Shown here piece after piece: positions 301-51,900 of a DNA stretch of 64,000 nt. Position 1 is the first letter of the stretch. Each line of letters starts with the position of its first letter. Source of the DNA: Yuukianura sp. NJ FZ-2021 (taxonomy: Eukaryota); contig CM102284.1 in assembly GCA_046563655.1 (NCBI GenBank), positions 6,572,001 through 6,636,000 of the forward strand, given 5' to 3'. Below the pieces are notes generated by a model that had not been told where the DNA came from, searched no databases, and worked only from the letters and a program-made list of their open reading frames with translations. The translations under genes and the position numbers were made by a program.

Positions 301-2372
301 CTTCTTTTATAAAATTCCAAATAGAGAACAGTGCAGTAATTTTCAAACGAACTTGGCAGCTGGATAGGCTTGTTAGGATACCAACCGAGTTTGTTTACTT
401 CGCTCACCTCAAACACGGTTGGGGAGCACTGCATAAGGCGAATGTGTATAATGTTAAGAGATAGGAAATCCGCTGATTAGCGGATTGTGCATCGATGCAC
501 AATTTTTGTTGAGCGAAGGATATTCTTCGTTCAGTGTACCCGCCTTTACTTTTTAGAATTCCAGCAATGTTACGACTATGCTGCGTTAAGAATCTGAAGG
601 GCTTACTTTTTCTTCAAGTTCTATAATAGAACAATAATTATTATTGTAGCCCTGAATTAGTATTTAGTATAACCATAAGGGTTTACTTAAATTGTGGGTA
701 CAAGAGGAGTGCCTTATTAGCGCCCAACCGGGGTCACTGGGAAACGCTATTTTGAATTTGTTTATTTTTTTCCAAACAGTTCGTCAAATGCAGTGCTCCC
801 AGAGTATGGATAGGCCTCCTGCAAGTTAAGAAAATATAAATCTCAACCTCTCAACGTTTACAATACAATACAGTGAACCAACCTACTTCTAAGCTTCGTA
901 AGGTACACACTTACAGTTATTCCTGTAGTTCGCCCCATAGACCTCTAAAAGAATCGACATGGATACGATCGCTTCGGCAGTGTTCGTGTTCATGTTGAAG
1001 AAACTGGCGAACGACTAAATACTATAAAAGTTACACGTACTGATCCCCTTTCATGACGTTCGGTATTTGCACACTTTCCAAACCAAACTCGAGGTGGACA
1101 ACGTAGATTACTAAAAACTTAATTAAATTAAGTGATAACCAGTGAAATCGATTGATGACAGATCATGATAAAAAAAAAACATCTGACAAGGACAACTGAA
1201 AAACTAACTTTCAACCACTGAATAACTTTCACTTCCCTTTCAATAATATGTATTCAAAAATCCCGCGCCCCCAAAATCCATAATATGCAAATTAGGTAAA
1301 CAATAACATATGACGTCCACATTTTTTACGCTAAACGTCAACAATGAAAATGACTGAGGTGAGTTTCAATTTATTCAATTCAGTTTCCGTGTTAATTATT
1401 CAATTAATTGATTTCTATTATTTTTACAGCTTGGATTCCTTCCCACTTCTACTGCATGATCTTTGAACGATCTCAGGACATACTGGACGATTACAGTATC
1501 ATCATACAGTCATCTGGTTTCCGCTACTAACACTACGACAAGCACTTCCGTGTCGGAAGTTCCGTCTCCGGCTCCGCCATCCATCGTCCATTCGGAGTCG
1601 GACTGGCGCTATTAAAGCAAGGACCCTATCGACTCGTTCCTCTGCACGACCCCGAATACGGACGAGAGATCATATTGGACGGAGCTTTCTCCGAGGACTC
1701 TGTGATCCTGCGATTGCGATTCAAGCCTCATTCTGCCTGCATTGTGAAGATGGAAGATGAAGGAACAAGGTGATGGGGAAGATGTGAACGTGAGGACGAG
1801 GAGGCCAAGAGGAGGGTGAGAAGTTGAGTTAAGTGGTGGGTGTTAAGTATATCTTGTGTTTCCTTCTTTTTTTGCTCTTAGCTGACAAGCTCATCGTGTA
1901 AACTTAAACTTTTCTTGGCGTTTGTGATAGGTTTCTGTTGGGTGATCCCGGATTCCGTAAGGATATGCAACTCCAAGTGCAAAGGGATCCCTGCTGAGGA
2001 AGGAATTCTCGCTGTGTATTCTTTTACGCCTTTTGGTTGGATACGATCGACCTTTTGCTGAAGCCAAGCCAAGACCAAGAAAAAGAAGTCCAAAGTATAA
2101 CCATTTTTACTATACTTTTTTTTTGGCTTGAGGCAAGAAGGCAAGAAATTGTACATCTACGCACTCACAAAAAAAGTTAAGTAATTGGTTTTGGTGATAA
2201 TTGTTTAGAACAGAAGCATGTTCAATGACTTCGTGGAGATCCCTGTAGTCACACAAACGACTGATCCAACGTGCCAGTACTGTTAAACCTCAACATTTGC
2301 AACAGTTAACTAAATAGTGGAAGTGCTGCTGGATCTCTTTGTGCGTGTGAAGTGAGAACTCTTTGTCTAACA

Positions 2373-4086
2373 ATGGATCCAAATGGGGAAGTGGTCGATT
2401 TGCCCCAACTCACTTGCTACTGCCACCATCACTGTCCTCCCGGGTCAAAGGACGAAGGGATTTGTTCAGTTCCTTGGGGTGGACGTTGTTTTGCTGCCGT
2501 TGAAGAAACGCTGAACCACATCACTGGAAACCTCGAACCAGAGTTCTCTTATGGCTGTTTCGCCCCTGGTGACCCCTCTTTCTTACAGTGCAAAGGTCAT
2601 TTAGTAGACCATGACATCCCTACGTCAATATTATGCTGTGACACTGGAAATCTGTGTAACGAAAACCTCAGACCTTTCTATACACCAACAAACATTACTG
2701 ATCCCACCCATCCCTTCTACGGCACAACACCCACAGATACCCAACTGCTCCAAATATTAATCGTCGTTGTATTTTCCCTGCTAGCACTAACGCTAGCCGT
2801 CGGTAAGTTAATTACTTGCACAATTTTTAATAAATCTAGTTTTTCCATGCCTAATTTGGTGTATTTCATTTCAGTTTTGTACATTGTCTGCAAGTATCGA
2901 GCAAAAGAACGATTTGAGAAGAGGCTAAAATGCGAAGAGGGCAACAAGCTAGTGTTGTCTGAATGTCCGAATTCCAAGGATTGCGAAATGAATCTGCTCG
3001 ATATCTCTTCCGGTTCTGGTTCAGGCCTTCCGTTACTCAAACAACGAACTATCGGAATGCAAATTGTTCTGAGAAGTCGAATAGGCAAGGGGAGATATGG
3101 TGAAGTGTTTCTCGGAGACTGGGGTGGTACTTCCGTCGCAGTCAAGTCCTTCCATTCTCTAGAAGATGCAAGTTGGGAACGGGAGAAGCAAATTTACCAA
3201 TTGGCGCTCATGAAGCATCCGAATATTTTAGGTATAACTTGACACCACTAGTAACTAAAACTGAATCATTTGAATCTTCCAGTAATTGAAACTTTTTAAC
3301 TTATTTTCAGTGTCAATGGCCTGGGACATTCGTTCAGTCGAAAACGTCACCCGAATGATAATTGTCACAACCTACCATCCCAATGGATCTCTCTATGACT
3401 ACTTGGAAACTCGGAGTCTAACGGAACAAGAAGCACTACGATTGGTCCTCAGCGCTGCCGCTGGACTGTGTCACCTACACACCGAAATTGAAGGAAAACC
3501 GTACAAACCGGGCATTGCCCACAGAGATTTGAAATCCAGGAACATTCTGATCAAGCGCAATGGGGAAGCAGTGCTAGCCGATTTCGGCTTGTCAGTTTGT
3601 TCCGTTCTTCAAGAAAAAGGGGTTGACCGACTACCGCTGAACATCAAATCCGGCACAAGAAGATACATGCCTCCAGAAATACTCGATGACTCCATGAAGT
3701 TTCAGTGGTTCGAGTCTTACAAACAAGCAGACATGTACTCGTTTGCTCTTATTCTTTGGGAAGTCGGTTCCCGGACAATGACAACTCCTCAACGTGGAAT
3801 TGGACTCAAAGAGGAATGTGAACCGTACCAAGTACCATTTTACAATCTGACGACAGCTGATCCATCGTATGAAGAAATGAAGTCATTAGTGTGTGACCGC
3901 GGTCTGAGACCAACAATTCCAGAACGCTGGAACGGTCCTTCCTTCTTTCTCCAAGTTTTGACTAAAGTGATTCAAGAATGCTGGCATCCAGTGCCCAACG
4001 TTCGTCCAAGCTCTCTCCGTCTCAAGAAAACGCTTGTCGGCCTCAAAGAAACCGTGGACAGCCCTACGTCACCTCAATTTGTGTGA
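2373..4086 (+). CDS. tkv: TGF-beta/BMP type I receptor Ser/Thr kinase, thickveins-like; 3 exons (about 2373-2802, 2875-3231, 3311-4086)
   Basis: Cys-rich ectodomain ([10 protein letters not shown]...CFAAV...YGC...CC..NLCN), transmembrane helix, GS box [47 protein letters not shown] introns join the ORF pieces in frame. True start uncertain because no signal peptide is visible. Confidence 0.9.
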
Positions 4087-4479: not shown

Positions 4480-6206
4480 TTACTTTTTTGGAGCAGTGAC
4501 AGATTTGAAAACAACGTTGTCCAGCGTAGCTTTACTGGATTTGGTCCAAGCTGGTGCTCGAGCTGTCGACTGTACTGGACCACCAGATTTAGTTTTTCCT
4601 TCATCTTTTTCTTTGGATCCAGTTCCAGGTTGAGGAATTGTAAGTGGGTTGTTTGATGTTGAGCCACCAAAGGTAGAGTTGTACATGTTTCGCCACGATG
4701 GACCACCAGAGGCATAGAGGTGGATTCGTCCAAGTGAAGTGTCATGCTGTTGACTGGTTGAAAGCGACAGGGTTTCACGAAACTTATCCAGGTTGGCCAG
4801 TCCTTCGTAGTCATTGACTTTCTTGCTTAGGAGGATAACCAAGTTCTCTTTTTCTGAAACCAGGTCAGTAGCTTCCTTGAGACTTGCTTCTAAATCGTTT
4901 TTTAGACGTGTGAGTTCTAGAACTTCGGATTCAAGTTTGGTCATTCGTTCCATGGACGATTTGAGAGCTGTACTGGACTTGTTCAATCCATCTGTCTTGA
5001 TTTTGAGTTGATTTTCTTGAGACTTGAGTACAGTTTCCTAAGAAAAACAAGCCACTTTTGAAAATGAACCAAATTATCAGTTTCATGGATTCATGATTGA
5101 TTTCTTACTTGGGCTTTAATTTGCCTTGTGAGATTACGTCCGTCGTCTTGAAGTTTGCGAATAATTTCATTGGCTTTTCCCAATTCACTGCTGACTTCCC
5201 TCAAATGCATTTTCAAAGCGTCCACTTCTCTCTCCAGTCCATCTTTTCTACTTTCCATTTCAGCTCCTTTCTCACCCAGATTGGAAATCAGATCCTGTTG
5301 ACGGGAGATCAGTGCCGTTTTGTCTCTAAGTTCAATCTCCATTGCTTCAGCCTTTTTGAGCAAACTCGCAAGTGCCCTTTGCTTCTCATGGTAATCTGTA
5401 TCCAGCTTGCCGTTATTCTTACGCAGAGTCTGGATTTCATGTGACATCAAGTTAGTTAGGCCTTCAGAGTCTGCAATTTTCTTGGTAAGATCAATGATCA
5501 TGTTTTCCTTTGCAAGAAGATTCTCCTCGGCAACTTTCAATTGTCCATCCAAGTTCCCGTGACCTGACTTGATTTCAAGTAGTTCGGTCTCCAGTTTGTC
5601 ATTCGTCTCACGAAGCGAAGTTATTTCATCAATCATTTGTTTCGTAGCTGCTTCGGAATCGATAAGTTGCTTGCTGAGGTAAGTAATCATGCTCTCTTTT
5701 GTGGCTAAAGAATCTTGAACGTTTTTGATGTGTTCCTTGATTTCGGATTGTGATACGCACATAATCTCCAACTCCGATTCCAGTTTGGCTACCTTCTCGC
5801 TGGCTCCACTCAATGCAGTGCTGGTTTGAACGATTCTTTCTTCCTTAGCTTTCAATTGGGCTTCTTGCGACGAAAGTATATTCTCCTGAAAAAGAATTAC
5901 AAAGGTTATAAACAGAACATAATGAACACTGACGAAACGAAGGCGATGTCATACCTGCGTCTTGACTCTTCTGGAGAGCTGTCCATTTTCATCCTGTAGC
6001 TTCTGAATTAACTCATTAGATTTAGTTAGCTCGGAGCTCACAGCGTTTAAATTGTTCCGGAGATCATCTACTTCTTTGGATAGGGTTTCCTTCCTTTCGT
6101 CTAGGTGAGCTCCCTTCTCTCCGAGAGAAGAAATTAAGTTCTGTTGTCGTTCGATTAGATTTATCATCTCCTTCAGCTCTGACCCCATCCCACTTGAATC
6201 TCCCAT
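4480..6206 (-). CDS. Coiled-coil protein resembling the SAS-6 rod, internally duplicated and lacking the head domain; exons 6206-5955, 5885-5109, 5037-4480 (528 aa)
   Basis: Two phase-0 GT-AG introns join three ORFs. Segments EIQTLRKNNGKLDTDYHEKQR, EIELRDKTALI, SSELGKANEIIRKLQDD and ITYLSKQL match recalled SAS-6 coiled-coil motifs ([55 protein letters not shown]). Confidence 0.8.
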
Positions 6207-6548
6207 TGTTGAATTGTGCTTTGGTTAGGATATGGATAATCCAAGTATGAAAGTTTGATTCGGAATCGGTACCTGTGACATGAATAAAAAGATTAATTAA
6301 GTTGTAAAATACAATACCCAAATAAACACTTACCAGTTTTCTAGACGATGGATTGAAATCATGAAATCACTTGCTAATGGTCTTTGATTGATTGATCAGC
6401 ATCAGCAATCAATAATTGATTTTGAATTGAATGTGAAATGTGAAGTGTGAACCCGAACCGGTGTAAATATCGTTTTCCAAAGATTACACGATGTAATAGT
6501 AGTAAAGATAATAAACTTAATGAACAATTGACAACCAACAACAACAAA

Positions 6549-7502
6549 CTATGGAGGGAGTTTGGTGGCAAAATTATTTTCAAGTTTCGCGCGTTAAAAT
6601 TTTTGGAAAAACACTATCGTGGGCAAGCACAAGCACCGATTTTTTTCAAATTTTTTCTGTAAACACTCTATGAACCCCTGATCACGAAAACACACACAAT
6701 TTTTTTTGAGGGGTCTCAAAAAAAAATATTTTTTCGAAAATTTGAAAAAAAAAAATTTGAATTTTTTTTGGGTCCGATTTGTATCAAAATTGGTTTTTAG
6801 ACTAATTCAAGGGTGCTAAACACGAATATGAAAGAATTTTTTGTTTAAAAGATAAGACTAAAAAGTTATGGAATTTCTAAAGCAATCGTACTATGAGAAA
6901 CGTCAGAGCAATGTATACCTAATGTTTGCGTAAGGGCATCAAAAATGCCATAAAACTTGGAACTAGAATTAGTAATCACTATTGCGAATCTAACCAAACC
7001 CAAGTTGATCTAACTAGAATGAAAAAGTAAATATGGCTGCAAGCTTAACCTAACATACCTCAGCCACCTAACATATCTAACCTCGTAAAAGGAATCGCTT
7101 AAAAAATTCGTAACTTTTTTGTCTAAGTTTTTAGAACAACAATTCTTTCAGATTCGTGTTTCGCATACTCGAATTAGTCTGAAAACCAATTTTCAGCCAA
7201 AAAAAAATTCGACATTTTTTTTCAAAATTTCGAAAAAATATTTTTTTTGTTGAGACCCCTCAAAAAAATTGTGTTTTCGTGATCAGGGGTCCATACAGTG
7301 TTTACAAAAAAAAATTTGAAAAAAATCGGTGCTTGCCCACGATAGTGTAATTTTACCAAATTTTTCTGCAATTAAAATTACTGCAATTAAAAAAAGTTTT
7401 CGCGCATTAAAGTAATACGCGAAAATTTTCGTTTTTAATTGGCAGAACATGTTTTAACGCGCGAAACTTTAAAGTAGTTTTGCCACCAAGCTCCCTCCAT
7501 AA
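6549..7502. mobile_element. Non-autonomous foldback/MITE-like DNA element with long imperfect inverted arms
   Basis: Left arm about 6549-6886 is the reverse complement of right arm about 7094-7502 (acactatcgtgggcaagcac at 6611 vs gtgcttgcccacgatagtgt ending 7348; atggagggagtttggtggcaaaa vs ttttgccaccaagctccctccat). No transposase ORF and no clear TSD. Confidence 0.8.
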
Positions 7503-7642
7503 TTTTACCCTAGAAATCCCTCCATAATTTACTCTATCTTTCTCCCACGTTTTTTTTTTGGCAGTTTCCAAACAAGTTGCCCGTTTGTTTCGCAATGATG
7601 TGTGACTTCAGAGGAATACTGCAGTCACTCTTCATGTTTAAA

Positions 7643-7726
7643 GCTGGGATGGCCGAGTGGTCTAAGGCGCTTGGTTCAGGTCCAAGTCATCTTCGGGTGG
7701 CGTGAGTTCGAATCTCACTTCCAGCA
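7643..7726 (+). tRNA. tRNA-Leu(CAG), 84 nt, long variable arm
   Basis: Acceptor stem GCTGGGA/TTCCAGC, A box TGGCCGAGTGG, anticodon arm CTTGG-TTCAGGT-CCAAG, T arm GTGAG-TTCGAAT-CTCAC, discriminator A, oligo-T Pol III terminator just downstream. Confidence 0.95.
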
Positions 7727-8033: not shown

Positions 8034-9964
8034 TCAGTTTTCCTTTGTAGTATTTTGTAACTTAAATACGTATGGTTTGGCGAAGCGAAAGATACTAACT
8101 AAGGCTTCATTTTTAATGTCCGCCTCACTGATTTTACCAAGAGAAGGGGCAAAGGTCAACTTGAAATTTTGCAAAATTGAAACAAAGTAAAGGAAAAAGG
8201 CGTTTCGCGTGTATGCTTGGCCTATGCAAGTTCGCAAACCAACTGAAAAATGGACCGAATGCGGAATTGGCTTTTCATCTTGTGCCAAAAACCGTTCCGG
8301 TCGAAACTGTTCCGGATCTCCCCAAATCTTGGGGTCATGATTGGCTCCATACAGGTTTCCAATGAGTACCGTTCCAGCCGGAACCGCGATACCGCGAAAC
8401 ACAGTATCGGCAGTTGCTTGGTGAAAGTTTGCAAATGGAGCACCAGACGAAACACGGAAAACTTCTTTCATAAACGCCGTGGTGTAGGGCATTCTAAAAT
8501 TTAGAAAACTGTTCAGCATTTCAAAATTTTAAAAACTGTTCTGTATTTTAAATTTTTAAGGACATTGAAAATTAATGTAAGTAAATATTACCTGTCCATG
8601 TATCCTAAGTCAATTGCACAGCAGCCGACTACTTCCTGAATTTCATCTCGAAGTTTTTGCTGCACATCGGGTCGACATGCTGCAAAAGCTAACGCCCAAT
8701 TCAAAAAATTGACAAACGCAATTACTCCAGTTGTGAAAACGTTCATAACAGTTCCCTTGAGGTTGTTTTCTAGATTTTTTTGAGAAAAAGTTAAAATCAA
8801 AAATTCATTTTTTAAAAGTCAGGATACGCATTTCGAACAAGCACTTACCACCAGCTTCGCCAGACAAACATAAGGGAATATTATTATTTGCGTTTTGTTG
8901 AGTTTTCAGAAGCCAAGTTTTAATAAAATTCTTTGAAGTGCTGTTAAGTGTCTGGCCTTGAAGGTCAAGGTCAAGGTCACGCTTGTTTTTGTTCACGGCG
9001 ATTTGGATCAGCTTGTGAAGCAACTCAATTACAGTTTTTCCAGCTTTGTATTCACTCATCTTTGGTAAGTATTCAATAAACTTCGGATTCATCCAGAACA
9101 ACGGATTTCCAATGGGTAGGTAGAACTTCCTAAAAACGAGTTAACTAAATTTTAACTTTTCAAAGCCATTTTTACAGATCCTTTTTGTACTTTTGAAAAT
9201 CCAAGACTTGGATTTGTAGGTTCCTGCTTGATTGAAAATCAAGGTTTTGTCCACTCATCATGTGCCAGACGTATCGCGTAACTGGAACCATCACAGCATC
9301 GCGCAAGCACATTTCAGAATTCCCATTTTGCAAATCCCGCTTCCAGCGTTCAATCATACTGCCAATATCTTGCAGCATCAAGTCATCACCTGGACGTGGT
9401 GCAAAGCCAATTTCAGTCAACACTTTGATTTCCATGTTGCGTACTGCTTCCCATTTCCGAAATTCGGTTGATGTAACGGTGCCTAAAATATTCAAATTAG
9501 GCTAGACGTTTTTCAAAATTCAAAATTTTTAAAAGTCGGTCCTGTTAAAATTTTCACCCCTGTCAGGTCCTCCAGAAAATAGAATCATTGGTATCGTCTG
9601 AGGACGGGCAAAGAAGTTGACATTTTGAAATGCTTCTTTCAAAATTTCAACATCACTTATGAGGATGACGTTGTAGGAACAGATTTTGAGTCCAACAATT
9701 TGTCCATACTTTTTGTTCCATTTGACCAAGCTTGCGAGTGGTGACCTCCTGAACTCTAGCCAGTTTCCAACAACGGGAAATTGAAATGGACCTTGATTGT
9801 TTTCACAAATCAAAATTTTCAAAATCAAACCGAATTTGTCAAATGAACTCTAGCAATTCAACTCTGCAGATTTTACCTGGTGCTTTAGCTTTTTTTGGTG
9901 TTTTCTTTCGAAAGTACAAACAAATGAGGACAAACGTCAAAAGAAGAATAGCTTTAAACATCAT
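8034..9964 (-). CDS. Cytochrome P450, CYP2 clan-like, copy 1 (6 exons)
   Basis: N-terminal anchor MMFKAILLLTFVLICLYF, proline hinge PGPFQFPVVGN, WxxxR (WEAVR), ExxR (EVFR), PERF, heme motif FSVGLRTCIG; canonical introns checked in frame. Confidence 0.93.
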
Positions 9965-10558
9965 TTTCTACAATTTCAAAATTTCAACTTTATGGAATTC
10001 CTTCTTGTACTTAACTTGACTCGTGACAGTATTTGATAGACTAATGTAGCTGTAACTTATGCAGTAGCTTTTTTTAAAAGTTCTTTTAATTAAAAACAGC
10101 CTAATTAACGTCATGTTTTGACGGCAAACTGTTGCCGAAGAAGCCATGCGTTTCCTTGATTTTGGACAAAGATTTAGATTTAGTTTTCAAGGAATAAAGT
10201 GATTTTGAACTTAATTAGAATTTTCTACATGAGAACATTCTAGTTCATATCAAAAATCCCTGATTGTGTCTCGAACTTGTGTGTTTTCCCGTGCCCCTCC
10301 TGAGCGTTTCTTTGAGAATTTAGCTAATTAGCCACTTCGTAAGTAGAATTCGACACAGAAAACGTTGGAGTGTAGTTTACGTATCCTGTTTTACTTACAC
10401 TTTTTTACTTACACACATTTCAACATAAAGTTAAATCCATAAACAGAAATCCTACTTTTTTGAAAAGTTAAAATCCTTCACATAAAAAGTTTAGTGACTT
10501 TGTCGTTTCATGTCGGTGCGTTTGCCTTACTTTAATTAATAAAAAAGTCATTTATATG

Positions 10559-10603
10559 TTAAATATTTCTCATCGTTTTCCAGAAATTAATCCGACGAAG
10601 GTT
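10559..10603 (-). pseudogene. Duplicated 3' fragment of the neighbouring carboxylesterase CDS
   Basis: Translates NLRRINFWKTMRNI*, against NLRRINFWKTMKNI* at 13633-13677. Confidence 0.75.
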
Positions 10604-10981
10604 CTAATACGCATCAAAAACTACCGATTTTATCTCTAACTTGTTTTTTTTAATAAGCTATTTCTTGAGAATTTACCTAATAATTAGACAGAAAAAACTC
10701 CAACGAAATTCGCATAACACGTTTTAGGTGAAGCATTTTAAATTTTAGTTACATTACACAGAAACACCTTTTCGAAATTTTGACGAATAAAAATTTTGAA
10801 AAAATTGAAATTTCGATTCGAACTCGAAAGTACCGAGTCGCAACCTGAGATAGATCAACATCTCCACACTAATGGTTTTCTTCACTGGCTTCAATGTTCC
10901 TCGCACTTCCAAAATTTTATTCATTATTTATTAAATTATAAATTATTATTATAAATATAATTATAAATTGAAAATTCAGTT

Positions 10982-12892
10982 TCATTCAATGTTTTGTAGC
11001 TTAAATGCGTATGGTTTGGCGAAGCGCCAGATACTAACTAAGGCTTCATTTTTAATGTCCGCTTCACTGATTTCACCAAGAGAAGGGGCAAAGGTCAACT
11101 TGAAATTTTGCAAAATTGAAACAAAGTAAAGAAAAAAGGCATTTCGCGTGTATGCTTGACCCACACAAGTTCTTAACCCAACTGAAAAATGCACCGATTG
11201 CGGAACTGATTTTTCATCTTGTGCCAAAAACCGTTCCGGTCGAAACCGTTCCGGATCTCCCCAAATCTTCGGGTCGTGATTGGCTCCATACAGATTGCCA
11301 ATTAAGATTGTTCCGGTCGGAATTTGGAAACCGCGAAACACAGTATCGGAAATTGCTTGGTGAAAATTTGCAAATGGAGCACCAGAGGATACGCGTAAAA
11401 CTTCTTTCATAAACGCCATGGTGTAGGGCATTCTAAAATTTTAAAAAATGTTAGCATTTCAATTTTTAAAATTTTTTTAGAAAATAAGGCGGAATAACCT
11501 GTCCATGTCCCTGATGTCAATTGTACATGAGCCGATCACTTCCTGAATTTCATCCCGAAGTTTTTGTTGTACATCTGGTCGACATGCTGCAAAAGCGAAC
11601 GCCCAGTTCAGCAAATTGACAAAAGCGATGACTCCAGTCATGAAAATGTTCGCAACGGTTCCCTTAAGGTTATTTTCTAGAATTTTTTGAAAAAAAAAAA
11701 CTTGAAATCCAAAATTATTTTTGAAAGTTGATTCCAATTTTGAACAAACACTAACCACCAGCCTCTTCATACAAGCATGAGAGGGATGGAAGACTTTTTC
11801 GTCTTTGCTGACTTTTCAAAAGCCAAGTTTTCATAAAATTCTTTGAAATTGATGTGCTACAAGTTGAGTGACCTTGAAGGTCACATTCGTCACGGTCAAT
11901 TTCGTGCTTGGTCTTGTGTACAGTGATTTGGATAAGCTTGTGAAGCGATTCAGCCGCAGTTTTTACACCTTTGTATGCATTAATCGTTGTCAAGAATTCA
12001 ATAAATTTTGGATCCATCCAGAACAGCGGATTTCCAATGGGCAGAAAAAACTTACTAAAAAATAAAGGTAAAATTTCGGGTTTTTAAAAACTTAGTTTTT
12101 TCATGTGTGATTTTTTTACTTTTGAAAATCCAAAAGTTGGACTTGGAGATTAACGCTTGATTCAAAATCCAGGTTTTGTCCACTCATCATGTGCCAGACG
12201 TATCGTGTAACTGGAACCATCACAGCATCACGCAAGCACATTTCAGAATTCCCATTTTGCAAATCCCGCTTCCAGCGTTCAATCATACTGCCAATATCTT
12301 GCAGCATCAAGTCATCTCCTGGACGTGGTGCAAAGCCGATTTCGCTCAACACTTTGATTTCCAAATTTCGTACTGCTTCCCAATTCCGAAATTCGGTTGA
12401 CGTAACTGTGCCTAAAATATTCAAGTTTTCCAAAATTCAAAATTTTCAAAAAAATTATTCCTTTTAAAATTTGTACCTCGGTCATGTCCTCCAGAGAATA
12501 GTATCATGGGTATCGTTTGAGCGCGGGCAAAGAAATTGACATTTTGAAATGCTTCTTTCAAAATTTCAGCATCACTTATGAGGATGACGTTGTAGGAGCA
12601 GATTTTGAGTCCCACAATTTGTCCATACTTTTTGTGCCATTTGACAAAGGTTTCTAGTGGTGACCTTCTGAACTCTAGCCAGTTTCCAACAATTGGAAAT
12701 TGAAATGGACCTTCATTATGTTCAAAAATCAAAATTTTCAAATTCAAACCCATTTTCTCAAATGAAGGCTAGCAACTCCACTTTGATGGAAATTTTACCT
12801 GGTGGTTTAGGAACTGTCTTCAGCTTTTTCCTTCTAAAGTACAAACAAATGAAGACAAACGTCAAAAGAACTATAGCGTCTTTAAGCATCAT
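10982..12892 (-). CDS. Cytochrome P450, CYP2 clan-like, copy 2 (tandem paralog, same exon structure)
   Basis: MMLKDAIVLLTFVFICLYF, PPGPFQFPIVGN, WEAVR, EVLR, PERF, FSVGLRTCVG; near-identical exons to copy 1. Confidence 0.93.
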
Positions 12893-48900: not shown

Positions 48901-51900
48901 ACCCTGACCTCGGAATCGTTTCACTAAATTCCTTTTTTTTTGTCATTCAGGCACGGCTGGTCCGAAGAACTTCAAACACTGAAACCAAGCTATGCTAAAC
49001 TCATATGTCCAACAGCGTAAGCCTCGTGATATGGACGATTTAGCACTTTCGCGTACTAATTACAGCTCTTAAACTATAAATTTACAGACCGATAGCCCCA
49101 GTTACAATTAACAACGGAATGAGGATGCCATCTTGGTTCGACATCCGCTCTTTGGACAAGAATGACAAAAACCAGGACGTCCAAGGCGTGAAGCAGTCTT
49201 CCGCCGCCATCGTCCAAATGATTCAATCAGAGGTAAAGAAAAAAACCAGGCAACTACCGGGTAATTCAACCCGTGAATTTAACCAATCTGTTAATTGTTT
49301 CTGATTTCAATTGAAACAGATCGATGGAGTGGATGGGAAACCAGGGATCCCTGCCTCTCGAATAGTTCTCGGTGGATTCAGTCAAGGAGGAGCCCTAGCA
49401 CTGTACACTGGTCTCATGGGTCCAGTTGCACTTGGAGGAATTATAACACTCTCTGGATACCTACCAATTGCCGATACCATTTCATGGCAGAACATTCGCA
49501 AACCGAATGTCCTACAGTGTCACGGAGACATGGATTCGGTAGTACCAATTGCCTTTGGAGTACAGACATCCCAAGCGCTCAAAAAACATTACGGGGACTC
49601 TTCCGACTACAAGTTTTCAGTCTACCGTGGAATGGATCACTGCTCATGTGCCGAAGAACTAAGCGATGTCGAAGATTTCATCAAAAAAATCATTCCACCA
49701 CTGCCAGATGCCTAACTTCCGTTTTAAAAAACATTCATCACAAAAGTTGCAGCTCCGAGAATTTGCACAAATCCTTCAGACATAAACAATTGCAATAAAA
49801 TGTTACTACATTTTACGGACCGTTTTGATTTTTGACGTGAGAGCACAGACTTTTTGATTAGTACTTCAGAAAAATCTAAAAAACATGAGACTAAATGCAT
49901 TTTAAACTCATTCAATCTTAGAAATTCAAGATTCAGTGATGAGCCTACTCCCATCCTCATCTCTGGGTCCTGTTTTAGTCTCATTTTTACGCCGCTCAAA
50001 ATTTTCAACAGGATATTTTTCAATCTGCAAATTTTTCACTTGGTTTTTCTCGCCTCCTTGAATATATTTTTTTACAACCAGCGTTCAATTTACGCAAAAT
50101 TACAATTTGAAGTAACGTTTTGAATTTTTCGAGACAACTTCAAAAATTCATTCATCTGCTTTGCTTTCTAAATACTAACTGTACTTCTATTTCAGATTAC
50201 TTCCACTCATCAGCTGTTTGGATAACGGTACAACTGAACCACGCAGCAAAAAGAAAAGTAATCAGTGCACACCGAGATATGGGTTCAATAATCCTACCAG
50301 CAACTGCAAGACAAACCGCATCGGTAAATGCATCTTAAAGATTTTCTTAGAACAAGAACCTTATTATCAACCGATCTTTGTTTACAGATCATTTTTCTAC
50401 ATGGACTTGGCGATAGCGGGTACAGATTTCTAAAATCTCAAAACATCTACGAAGTATATCGTATATCGTGCTAGCTTACTTAAACTACAGCTGAAGAAAC
50501 TGATCACTTCTTTCCTGTTCTTCTTACAGTGCTAGTTGGGCGGAACTACTGCCAGCATTGGTCCCAGCTTATGCTAAACTAATCCTACCACATGCGTAAA
50601 GTTCAAATCTTTAGTTAAAGATCGCCTAAACTGTTTGATTTTGATGGATTGTGAATTTTATAGACCGGTCCGCCCTGTAACTCTGAATCAGGGCATACGA
50701 ATGCCTGCTTGGTTTGACCTCCGACCTATCGATCAACCGAAAGATGCCTTCGGTATCAAAATGGCTTCAGATCAAATTCAAGAACTGATTCAGCGAGAGG
50801 CTAGTCCAAAATCGAAGTTAAACTTAAGCTATACTAAGCAACTTAGAACTGAATCATTAAAATTAATCCTAATTCTTGGTTTCAGACAACACAAGGAATT
50901 CCAGAAAACCGGATCGTACTGGGTGGATTCAGTCAAGGGGGAGCACTGGCTCTATTCTCTGGCCTAACATTATCGACTCGTATCGCGGGAATACTAGCCT
51001 TGTCAACATGGATGCCCCTCCGTAATGAAATTCTATGGGAAGAGATTCAGAAACCAACGGTACTACAATGTCACGGGGATGAAGATGAAACGATTTCATT
51101 GGATAGTGCCTCCAAAACTGCCAAACATCTCCAGAAACACCTTCCATCCTACACATTCAAAGTCTACCCTGGACTGGATCACTCCATTTCTTCAAAAGAA
51201 GAAACAAAAGATATCTCTGACTTCTTGAAAACGGTGCTACCACCTGTACCAGCTAAGAATTCGGCCAAACCGTGACATGAGTTGTCATATCACCAAGGTC
51301 ACGCGCGCTGGACAAGAATAAGGAACAAATACTTACTTGACATGCTGAAGACGTTTCATGATTCGGTGTTTATGTGTTCGGTGGAATTTTAAGTCTGCTG
51401 GTTGCAACTCCCGATCGCGATTTACTCCTGTAGAGAAACTGTCTTCCGGCAATACTGTCTCTGTCCAAATCCGACATATTTTATCCAAGCAGCTTGTAAT
51501 CAGTGCGTTGAAGACAGCTCCCCTGTAATCAATACTTGTATAGATTCCGAAAAGAAATAACTTCAATAAAAATTTTCATAATATTGACAACTTGTTGACA
51601 TACTTTGGCATATACTTGCTGGTTTGCCTCCAGGAAAATCCAGTAACGGCCCTCGGATGGGCCAAGTAGACGAAATCGTAAGCAACCCCGTCGTTGTGGC
51701 TTATGAACTCTGAAAGTACAAAGTAAGCATCAATTTATAAGGTAAAGTATTGATTTCTAAAAATGAAATGATCACGTACTTGTTACTGGATACCACACTT
51801 TGACCAGACGATCAAACTTTCCAGCTGTGGCGAAAAGGCAGGAATCTGGAGAAAATGACAAAAAATGGACTTCAGTGGCTGTCGTACACTTCCAGATACA

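Follow-up and report, generated by a model that had tools for sequence, protein, structure and literature searches.

The window analysed here is a stretch of 64,000 nucleotides, and its minus strand carries a SAS-6-derived gene with three coding exons within positions 6206 to 4480 and a product of 528 residues. This reproduces the exon/intron structure and product length given in a preliminary description made from the sequence alone. Coding exon 1 (5955 to 6272) consists of untranslated sequence (6272-6207), the ATG at 6206 and 84 codons (6206-5955, residues 1-84), which correspond to the first half of copy 1 of an internal repeat and to SAS-6 profile positions 333-409. Intron 1 (5886 to 5954; 69 nt, phase 0, GT-AG) is followed by coding exon 2 (5109 to 5885), whose 259 codons (residues 85-343) equal 37 heptads and hold the second half of copy 1, a 63-residue partial third unit and the first part of copy 2. 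The partial unit lies at 5466 to 5654, or about residues 162-224, with approximate boundaries. Coding exon 3 (4480 to 5037; residues 344-528, 185 codons plus a stop at 4482-4480) follows intron 2 (5038 to 5108; 71 nt, phase 0, GT-AG) and contains the remainder of copy 2, which ends near residue 420, and then a proline-containing C-terminal tail that is probably disordered. All of these features are on the minus strand, and the same two introns are found in an ortholog on L007, a metagenome contig from a second species.

Upstream of the start codon, on the same strand, we place a probable non-coding 5' exon at 6334 to 6460, with an uncertain 5' end and a donor GT at 6333-6332, and a probable 5' UTR intron of 61 nt (6273 to 6333, GT-AG). 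The acceptor at 6272 has 14 pyrimidines in 18 positions, compared with 12-15 in the real acceptors of the gene. The in-frame TAA that had been reported seven codons upstream of the ATG, in the same exon, was located at 6227-6225, inside the exon that starts at this strong acceptor. A weak alternative acceptor at 6218 would bypass the TAA; with either acceptor the adjacent upstream exon carries stops in the main frame. That exon also contains two upstream ATGs, and the probable spliced leader (6334-6460 joined to 6272-6207) holds an 11-codon upstream ORF and a 42-codon out-of-frame ORF that overlaps the main ATG. These ORFs could damp translation of the headless SAS-6. Further upstream lies a MITE-like element with long inverted arms (6546 to 7530, no strand assigned), for which blastn gave no match in L007. 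The earlier view that only a short UTR-like exon and a MITE precede the gene therefore agrees with the exon at 6334-6460, with its stops, and the inverted-repeat element at about 6546-7530. The gene model as a whole is predicted from sequence and from conservation in two species.

The neighbouring genes are of several kinds. A type I TGF-beta/BMP-type receptor gene with Activin_recp, TGF_beta_GS and kinase domains (2310 to 4086, plus strand) is convergent downstream; it matches L007 at 69-80% by blastn and also adjoins the ortholog. A tRNA-Leu(CAG) gene (7643 to 7726, plus strand) is the divergent upstream neighbour in both species. Two tandem, closely similar cytochrome P450 genes (8034-12768, minus strand) stand directly upstream, and none was seen in the 1967 nt of upstream sequence held by L007. 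Elsewhere in the window, at least two tandem plus-strand ORFs at 49305-51275, which we take to resemble acyl-protein thioesterase/lysophospholipase, are probably genes nested in an intron, flanked by exons of a long Rav1p_C-domain gene on the minus strand. About 10 kb from the SAS-6-derived gene, a long multi-exon coiled-coil gene occupies approximately 6560800-6566300 of contig C2 on the plus strand (L070:8811-10000 and L006:1-4252). We presume that it resembles CEP290; Pfam, PDB and Atlas searches gave no family for it. If this likeness is right, two centriole/cilium genes are near neighbours.

The assignment to SAS-6 made in the preliminary description was upheld by several comparisons. The best PDB match of coding exon 2 was 6z26 (E = 7.4e-5, and 2.8e-5 for the last 138 residues of the exon), which the available text of PMC9592557 describes as the zebrafish SAS-6 coiled coil 243-358. 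A phmmer search against 1.84 billion proteins returned 59 matches. The SAS-6_N head domain was present in 29 of the 58 scanned, which is 29 of the 33 matches of at least 440 residues; of the other four long matches, three resembled SAS-6 but had a missing or incomplete head, and the fourth had plant-type domains. Eight of nine named match clusters carry SAS-6 homolog names. On a SAS-6 profile built from 25 phmmer matches, the spliced window protein scored 225 bits, with domains at 333-493, 290-342 and 256-512, and profile-profile comparison with SAS-6 gave a probability of 98.4 and an E-value of 7e-15. Both copies preserve the conserved positions of the distal spoke. The retained part is thus the SAS-6-specific distal coiled coil (profile approximately 290-486) plus the tail; the match fades after about position 512, and the tail of about 105 residues shows weak likeness to other SAS-6 tails. 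These are specific SAS-6 matches and not just generic coiled coils: the 6z26 match, the phmmer relatives with a SAS-6 head domain and the profile score together rule out a generic coiled coil. Pfam searches with single exons gave sub-threshold coiled-coil families only, exon 1 alone gave chance PDB matches, and the feature-based Atlas look-alikes were generic coils below recognition level.

The gene encodes no head domain, as had been proposed. The SAS-6_N head (PF16531) had no match in any exon, in the spliced protein, in 474 kb around the gene or in L007, and the best score of an unfiltered head-profile search over the 474 kb was 8.4 bits. The proximal coiled coil that follows the head (PF18594, profile 146-290) is likewise absent from the window protein. 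Upstream head exons that could be spliced onto the gene had been raised as a possible objection; the unfiltered profile search found none within 258 kb upstream. Judged by its profile coordinates, the gene is missing the globular head as well as some 140 residues from the start of the coil (positions 1 to about 290).

What remains has been duplicated. The claim that two copies of one module are both cut by a phase-0 intron at the same residue is confirmed by alignment: copies 1 and 2 align at 44% identity over 159 residues with 134 bits, while 40 shuffled versions reached no more than 37.4 bits, and intron 2 cuts copy 2 at the residue where intron 1 cuts copy 1. In each copy the first half stops at the intron, and these two halves share 53% identity across 79 columns. 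A partial third copy is also present, aligning with exon 3 at 46% over 50 residues and forming its own profile domain at 290-342. Marker residues recur at 147, 210 and 406, giving offsets of 63 and 196, and the protein can be divided into a 5'-truncated copy (about residues 1-161), the 63-residue partial copy (about 162-224) and a full 196-residue copy (about 225-420). Because the duplicated unit spans the intron, with an offset of 259 codons, these repeats reflect tandem segmental duplication; the duplication proposed earlier stands, and the copying of a single exon does not. In all seven related exon-sized SAS-6 fragments, similarity is lost at a valine (a possible GT donor) in the column of intron 1, which suggests that the intron that was duplicated already existed in the ancestor of this SAS-6 clade.

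The repeat offsets of 63, 196 and 259 are all multiples of seven, and in both species a single heptad register is maintained from residue 1 as far as about residue 425. The protein contains one unbroken coiled coil of about 415-420 of its 528 residues, followed by the tail. A single-sequence structure model of exon 2, run as a single chain, was all-helical (mean pLDDT 86.3, pTM 0.31). The canonical SAS-6 coil spans 326-334 residues in 26 of 27 relatives, some of them cluster-mates, compared with about 415 in the window gene, which thus departs from the conserved length of about 330 residues. With 0.1485 nm per residue and a SAS-6 hub of about 21 nm (values from the available text of PMC7667884), a canonical coil of about 50 nm plus half of the hub comes to about 60 nm, and the rod of the window protein to about 62 nm. 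The "extended spoke" suggested earlier fits this rod length. One may speculate that duplication restored the reach from wall to axis that was lost with the head and proximal coil; the match between the rod and spoke plus hub is, however, one coincidence of rough numbers.

The L007 ortholog is 63% identical to the window gene over 518 aligned codons, with dN of 0.27 and pS of 0.78, such that silent sites are saturated. It has the same start codon, the same duplication and both introns, plus one more intron, and DNA likeness between the two genes begins exactly at ATG 6206. The tail is 46% identical between the two proteins. Because the ortholog shares the start, the duplication and the neighbours (tRNA-Leu upstream and the type I TGF-beta receptor convergent downstream) while silent sites are saturated, the headless form is, on this comparison, old and under purifying selection. 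The contig extends 1967 nt upstream of the ortholog, where no stop interrupts the frame between the best acceptor and the ATG. The additional intron (L007:3374-3444) lies near the end of copy 2 and is absent from the window gene; the matching place in copy 1 is empty in both species.

We placed the repeat copies in a tree of 61 of 66 sequences over a short alignment of 77 columns, rooted at the midpoint. P0001, P0004, P0050, P0060 and P0061 had been excluded in advance, and rows with fewer than 60 columns (n = 5) were dropped. The four copies of the window gene and L007 form one clade with support of 100, within which each copy pairs with the same copy of the other species (the copy-1 pair carries no printed support value). 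Fragments P0002 and P0011 come next (99), then P0003, P0005, P0006, P0022 and P0023 (91), and a long branch leads to the coil of this SAS-6 lineage. Protein searches by word matching recovered no relatives of greater length, which is weak evidence by the method's own caveat. The tree also contains P0049, a SAS-6-like database protein of 685 residues without a head domain and sister to the named planthopper protein P0058; it may reflect a faulty gene model or be a further natural case of headless SAS-6. Headless SAS-6 database entries of this kind are probably often gene-model errors, and the window gene is set apart from them by its start and duplication in two species.

We searched the 98.7-Mb assembly (22 contigs, completeness not stated) for a canonical SAS-6, using filtered searches with a loose first look. 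Three coiled-coil queries (exon 2, P0002 and P0005) revealed no second SAS-6 coiled-coil locus to E = 1. P0002, which is 48% identical, and P0005 found the window locus at E = 6e-34 and 2e-17, and even its 80-residue exon was detected, at 29% identity. Three other P0002 matches had E-values of 0.19-0.76; the best of them, L011 on C3, scored 23 bits on the SAS-6 profile and was rejected as an SMC1-like gene, as we take it to be from its ORFs. Six queries for the head or proximal coil found neither elsewhere in the assembly, in filtered searches that do not prove absence. PF16531 gave three candidates to E = 10, all chance, including a match on C8 that has six stops and is antisense to another gene. 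PF18594 gave only three candidates, again all chance. Candidates L026-L030 were discarded for want of head context. Two head-motif patterns produced 4 and 2 matches compared with 3 and 1 in reversed controls, none of them a head, and the motif matches L015-L020 also had no head context. An insect-head query, which has no positive control, gave no candidates.

The sensitivity of these searches can be gauged in several ways. The same search recovered the TCP domain of SAS-4 (50.6 bits), PLK4 (70.2 bits) and three B9 loci, so centriole and cilium genes are present in this animal; one B9 locus was found through a 52-residue exon, indicating that exons cut by introns can be found. A calibration used a separately built profile, which is not the search filter, and in it seven of eight held-out heads scored at least 18.7 bits as 25-residue pieces. 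The eighth, P0048, would escape every head query used. This planthopper SAS-6 has a head that scores at most 12 bits in 50-residue pieces on a profile from other animals, and its sequence indicates that SAS-6 heads can drift strongly. The two motif patterns fit 19 and 20 of 21 heads and were derived from the same alignment as the calibration. The near relative P0005 keeps a head end of about 25 residues on the same exon as the coil; PF16531 is blind to this piece, and the P0005 query covers both the head end and the whole proximal coil. The window gene is thus the only SAS-6 locus found in the assembly by filtered searches. The separate full-length SAS-6 that the preliminary description had envisaged was not found in them, and its terms "paralog" and "dominant modulator" are left unsupported, because both presuppose a canonical SAS-6 and neither coil nor head queries found one; filtered searches of the 98.7-Mb assembly cannot prove that such a partner is absent.

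Compared with canonical SAS-6/SASS6 (PF16531; PDB 6Z26), the window protein has a homologous distal coiled coil (about 290-486) followed by a tail, a continuous heptad register, and an intron position common to related SAS-6 fragments. Unlike canonical SAS-6, it is without two defining features, the head and the proximal coil; its distal segment occurs three times, once in full, once truncated at the 5' end and once with an internal deletion; and its rod is about 415 residues long and not 326-334. It is therefore not a canonical SAS-6 but is descended from one, and it may do the job of SAS-6. The available text of PMC4709270 reports that human SAS-6 lacking its N-terminal half (DM4) supports centrioles that are able to duplicate, form cilia and show ninefold symmetry, with errors being more frequent; it also cites earlier work in which a headless fragment could not fully support duplication of normal centrioles. 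The engineered proteins DM2 and DM4 resemble the window protein in having no head and in combining a partial coiled coil with the C-terminal tail. They were overexpressed in cells null for p53 and gave more errors (PMC4709270, same text), whereas the window gene is natural, has been under long purifying selection and has a duplicated rod. CCDC61/VFL3 is a SAS-6 paralog that, according to the available text of PMC7267773, keeps both SAS-6-like dimer interfaces and forms filaments and not rings. The window protein is similarly SAS-6-related, but it has no globular N-terminal domain (its register starts at residue 1) and its matches are to SAS-6 proper. Searches of the open-access literature brought up no natural headless SAS-6.

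Our preferred reading, held tentatively and close to even confidence, is that the window gene is the lineage's own remodelled and only SAS-6, working as a headless spoke. An ancestral SAS-6 gene would have lost the head and proximal coil, with its tail and the 196-residue distal part of the spoke surviving; a rod of about 415 residues would have been rebuilt by tandem duplications, each offset by a whole number of heptads. By homology (PMC9592557, available text), the product would be a parallel two-stranded dimer. From centriole biology, its distal coil and tail could mediate its recruitment in the PLK4/SAS-4 pathway, and by analogy with human DM4 it might act as the radial spokes that scaffold a new centriole in which no ring hub self-assembles. 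Several observations weigh against this reading. Searches were filtered and the completeness of the assembly is not stated, such that a missing match does not show absence; the head of this long-branch lineage could be as diverged as its coil; the L007 leader is open from its best acceptor to the ATG, with only 1967 nt held upstream; the tail hardly resembles those of other SAS-6 proteins; and the headless human fragment is error-prone and, in earlier work, did not fully support normal centriole duplication (PMC4709270, available text).

In the main rival reading, the gene is a headless, internally duplicated paralog beside a canonical SAS-6 that is unassembled or missed, co-dimerising with or bundling normal spokes or serving a tissue-specific basal-body or sperm role. 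Head-bearing SAS-6 is the rule among the relatives retrieved, the near relative P0005 retains its head end, the ORF overlapping the start could keep expression low, and the assembly is of unstated completeness and was searched with a loose first look; we regard this reading as unlikely while taking it seriously. Against it, P0002 and P0005 find the window locus strongly and no other SAS-6 locus to E = 1, in an assembly where five other centriole/cilium loci are readily found. Alternatively, SAS-6 might be split, with the head and proximal coil (profile 1-290) on a separate diverged gene and a coiled-coil overlap rebuilding the hub and spoke. The retained and lost parts are complementary halves, and a diverged, intron-cut head can escape detection, but neither PF16531, PF18594, the two motifs nor P0005 found a head, and none lies within 474 kb; we consider this arrangement improbable. 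A remnant co-opted as a general structural coiled coil (a linker, a rootlet-like or a spindle filament), with centrioles built without a SAS-6 scaffold, would account for the missing head, the diverged tail and the rod lengthened by repeats, and the generic coiled coils among feature-based look-alikes are weakly in its favour. It is difficult to reconcile with conserved distal-spoke positions in both copies, with the presence of PLK4, SAS-4 and B9 genes, and with human cells without SAS-6, which lack centrioles (PMC4709270, available text), and we think it very unlikely. Finally, distant or trans-spliced head exons could join the window exons to give a long SAS-6 with a head, as the weak acceptor at 6218 and the open L007 leader would allow. 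Main-frame stops in the adjacent upstream exon with either acceptor, conservation that starts at the ATG, no head within 258 kb upstream and intervening same-strand genes (P450s and a carboxylesterase) make such an incomplete gene model highly improbable.

In the standard model, nine SAS-6 dimers join head to head and thereby set centriole symmetry. The main challenge to this model comes from engineered mutants in cultured cells (PMC4709270). If a canonical copy exists, the window gene would still be a conserved headless SAS-6 paralog of a kind not yet described. It is possible, though we would sooner doubt than assert it, that a lineage with PLK4, SAS-4 and transition-zone genes stably lost the SAS-6 head and builds its centrioles on a hub-less cartwheel of approximately 62-nm rods restored by heptad-exact duplications; ninefold symmetry, if kept, would then be set by the mother centriole or the microtubule wall rather than by rings of SAS-6. 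If its only SAS-6 is indeed headless and kept under selection, this lineage would provide a natural whole-animal test of whether rings set ninefold symmetry.
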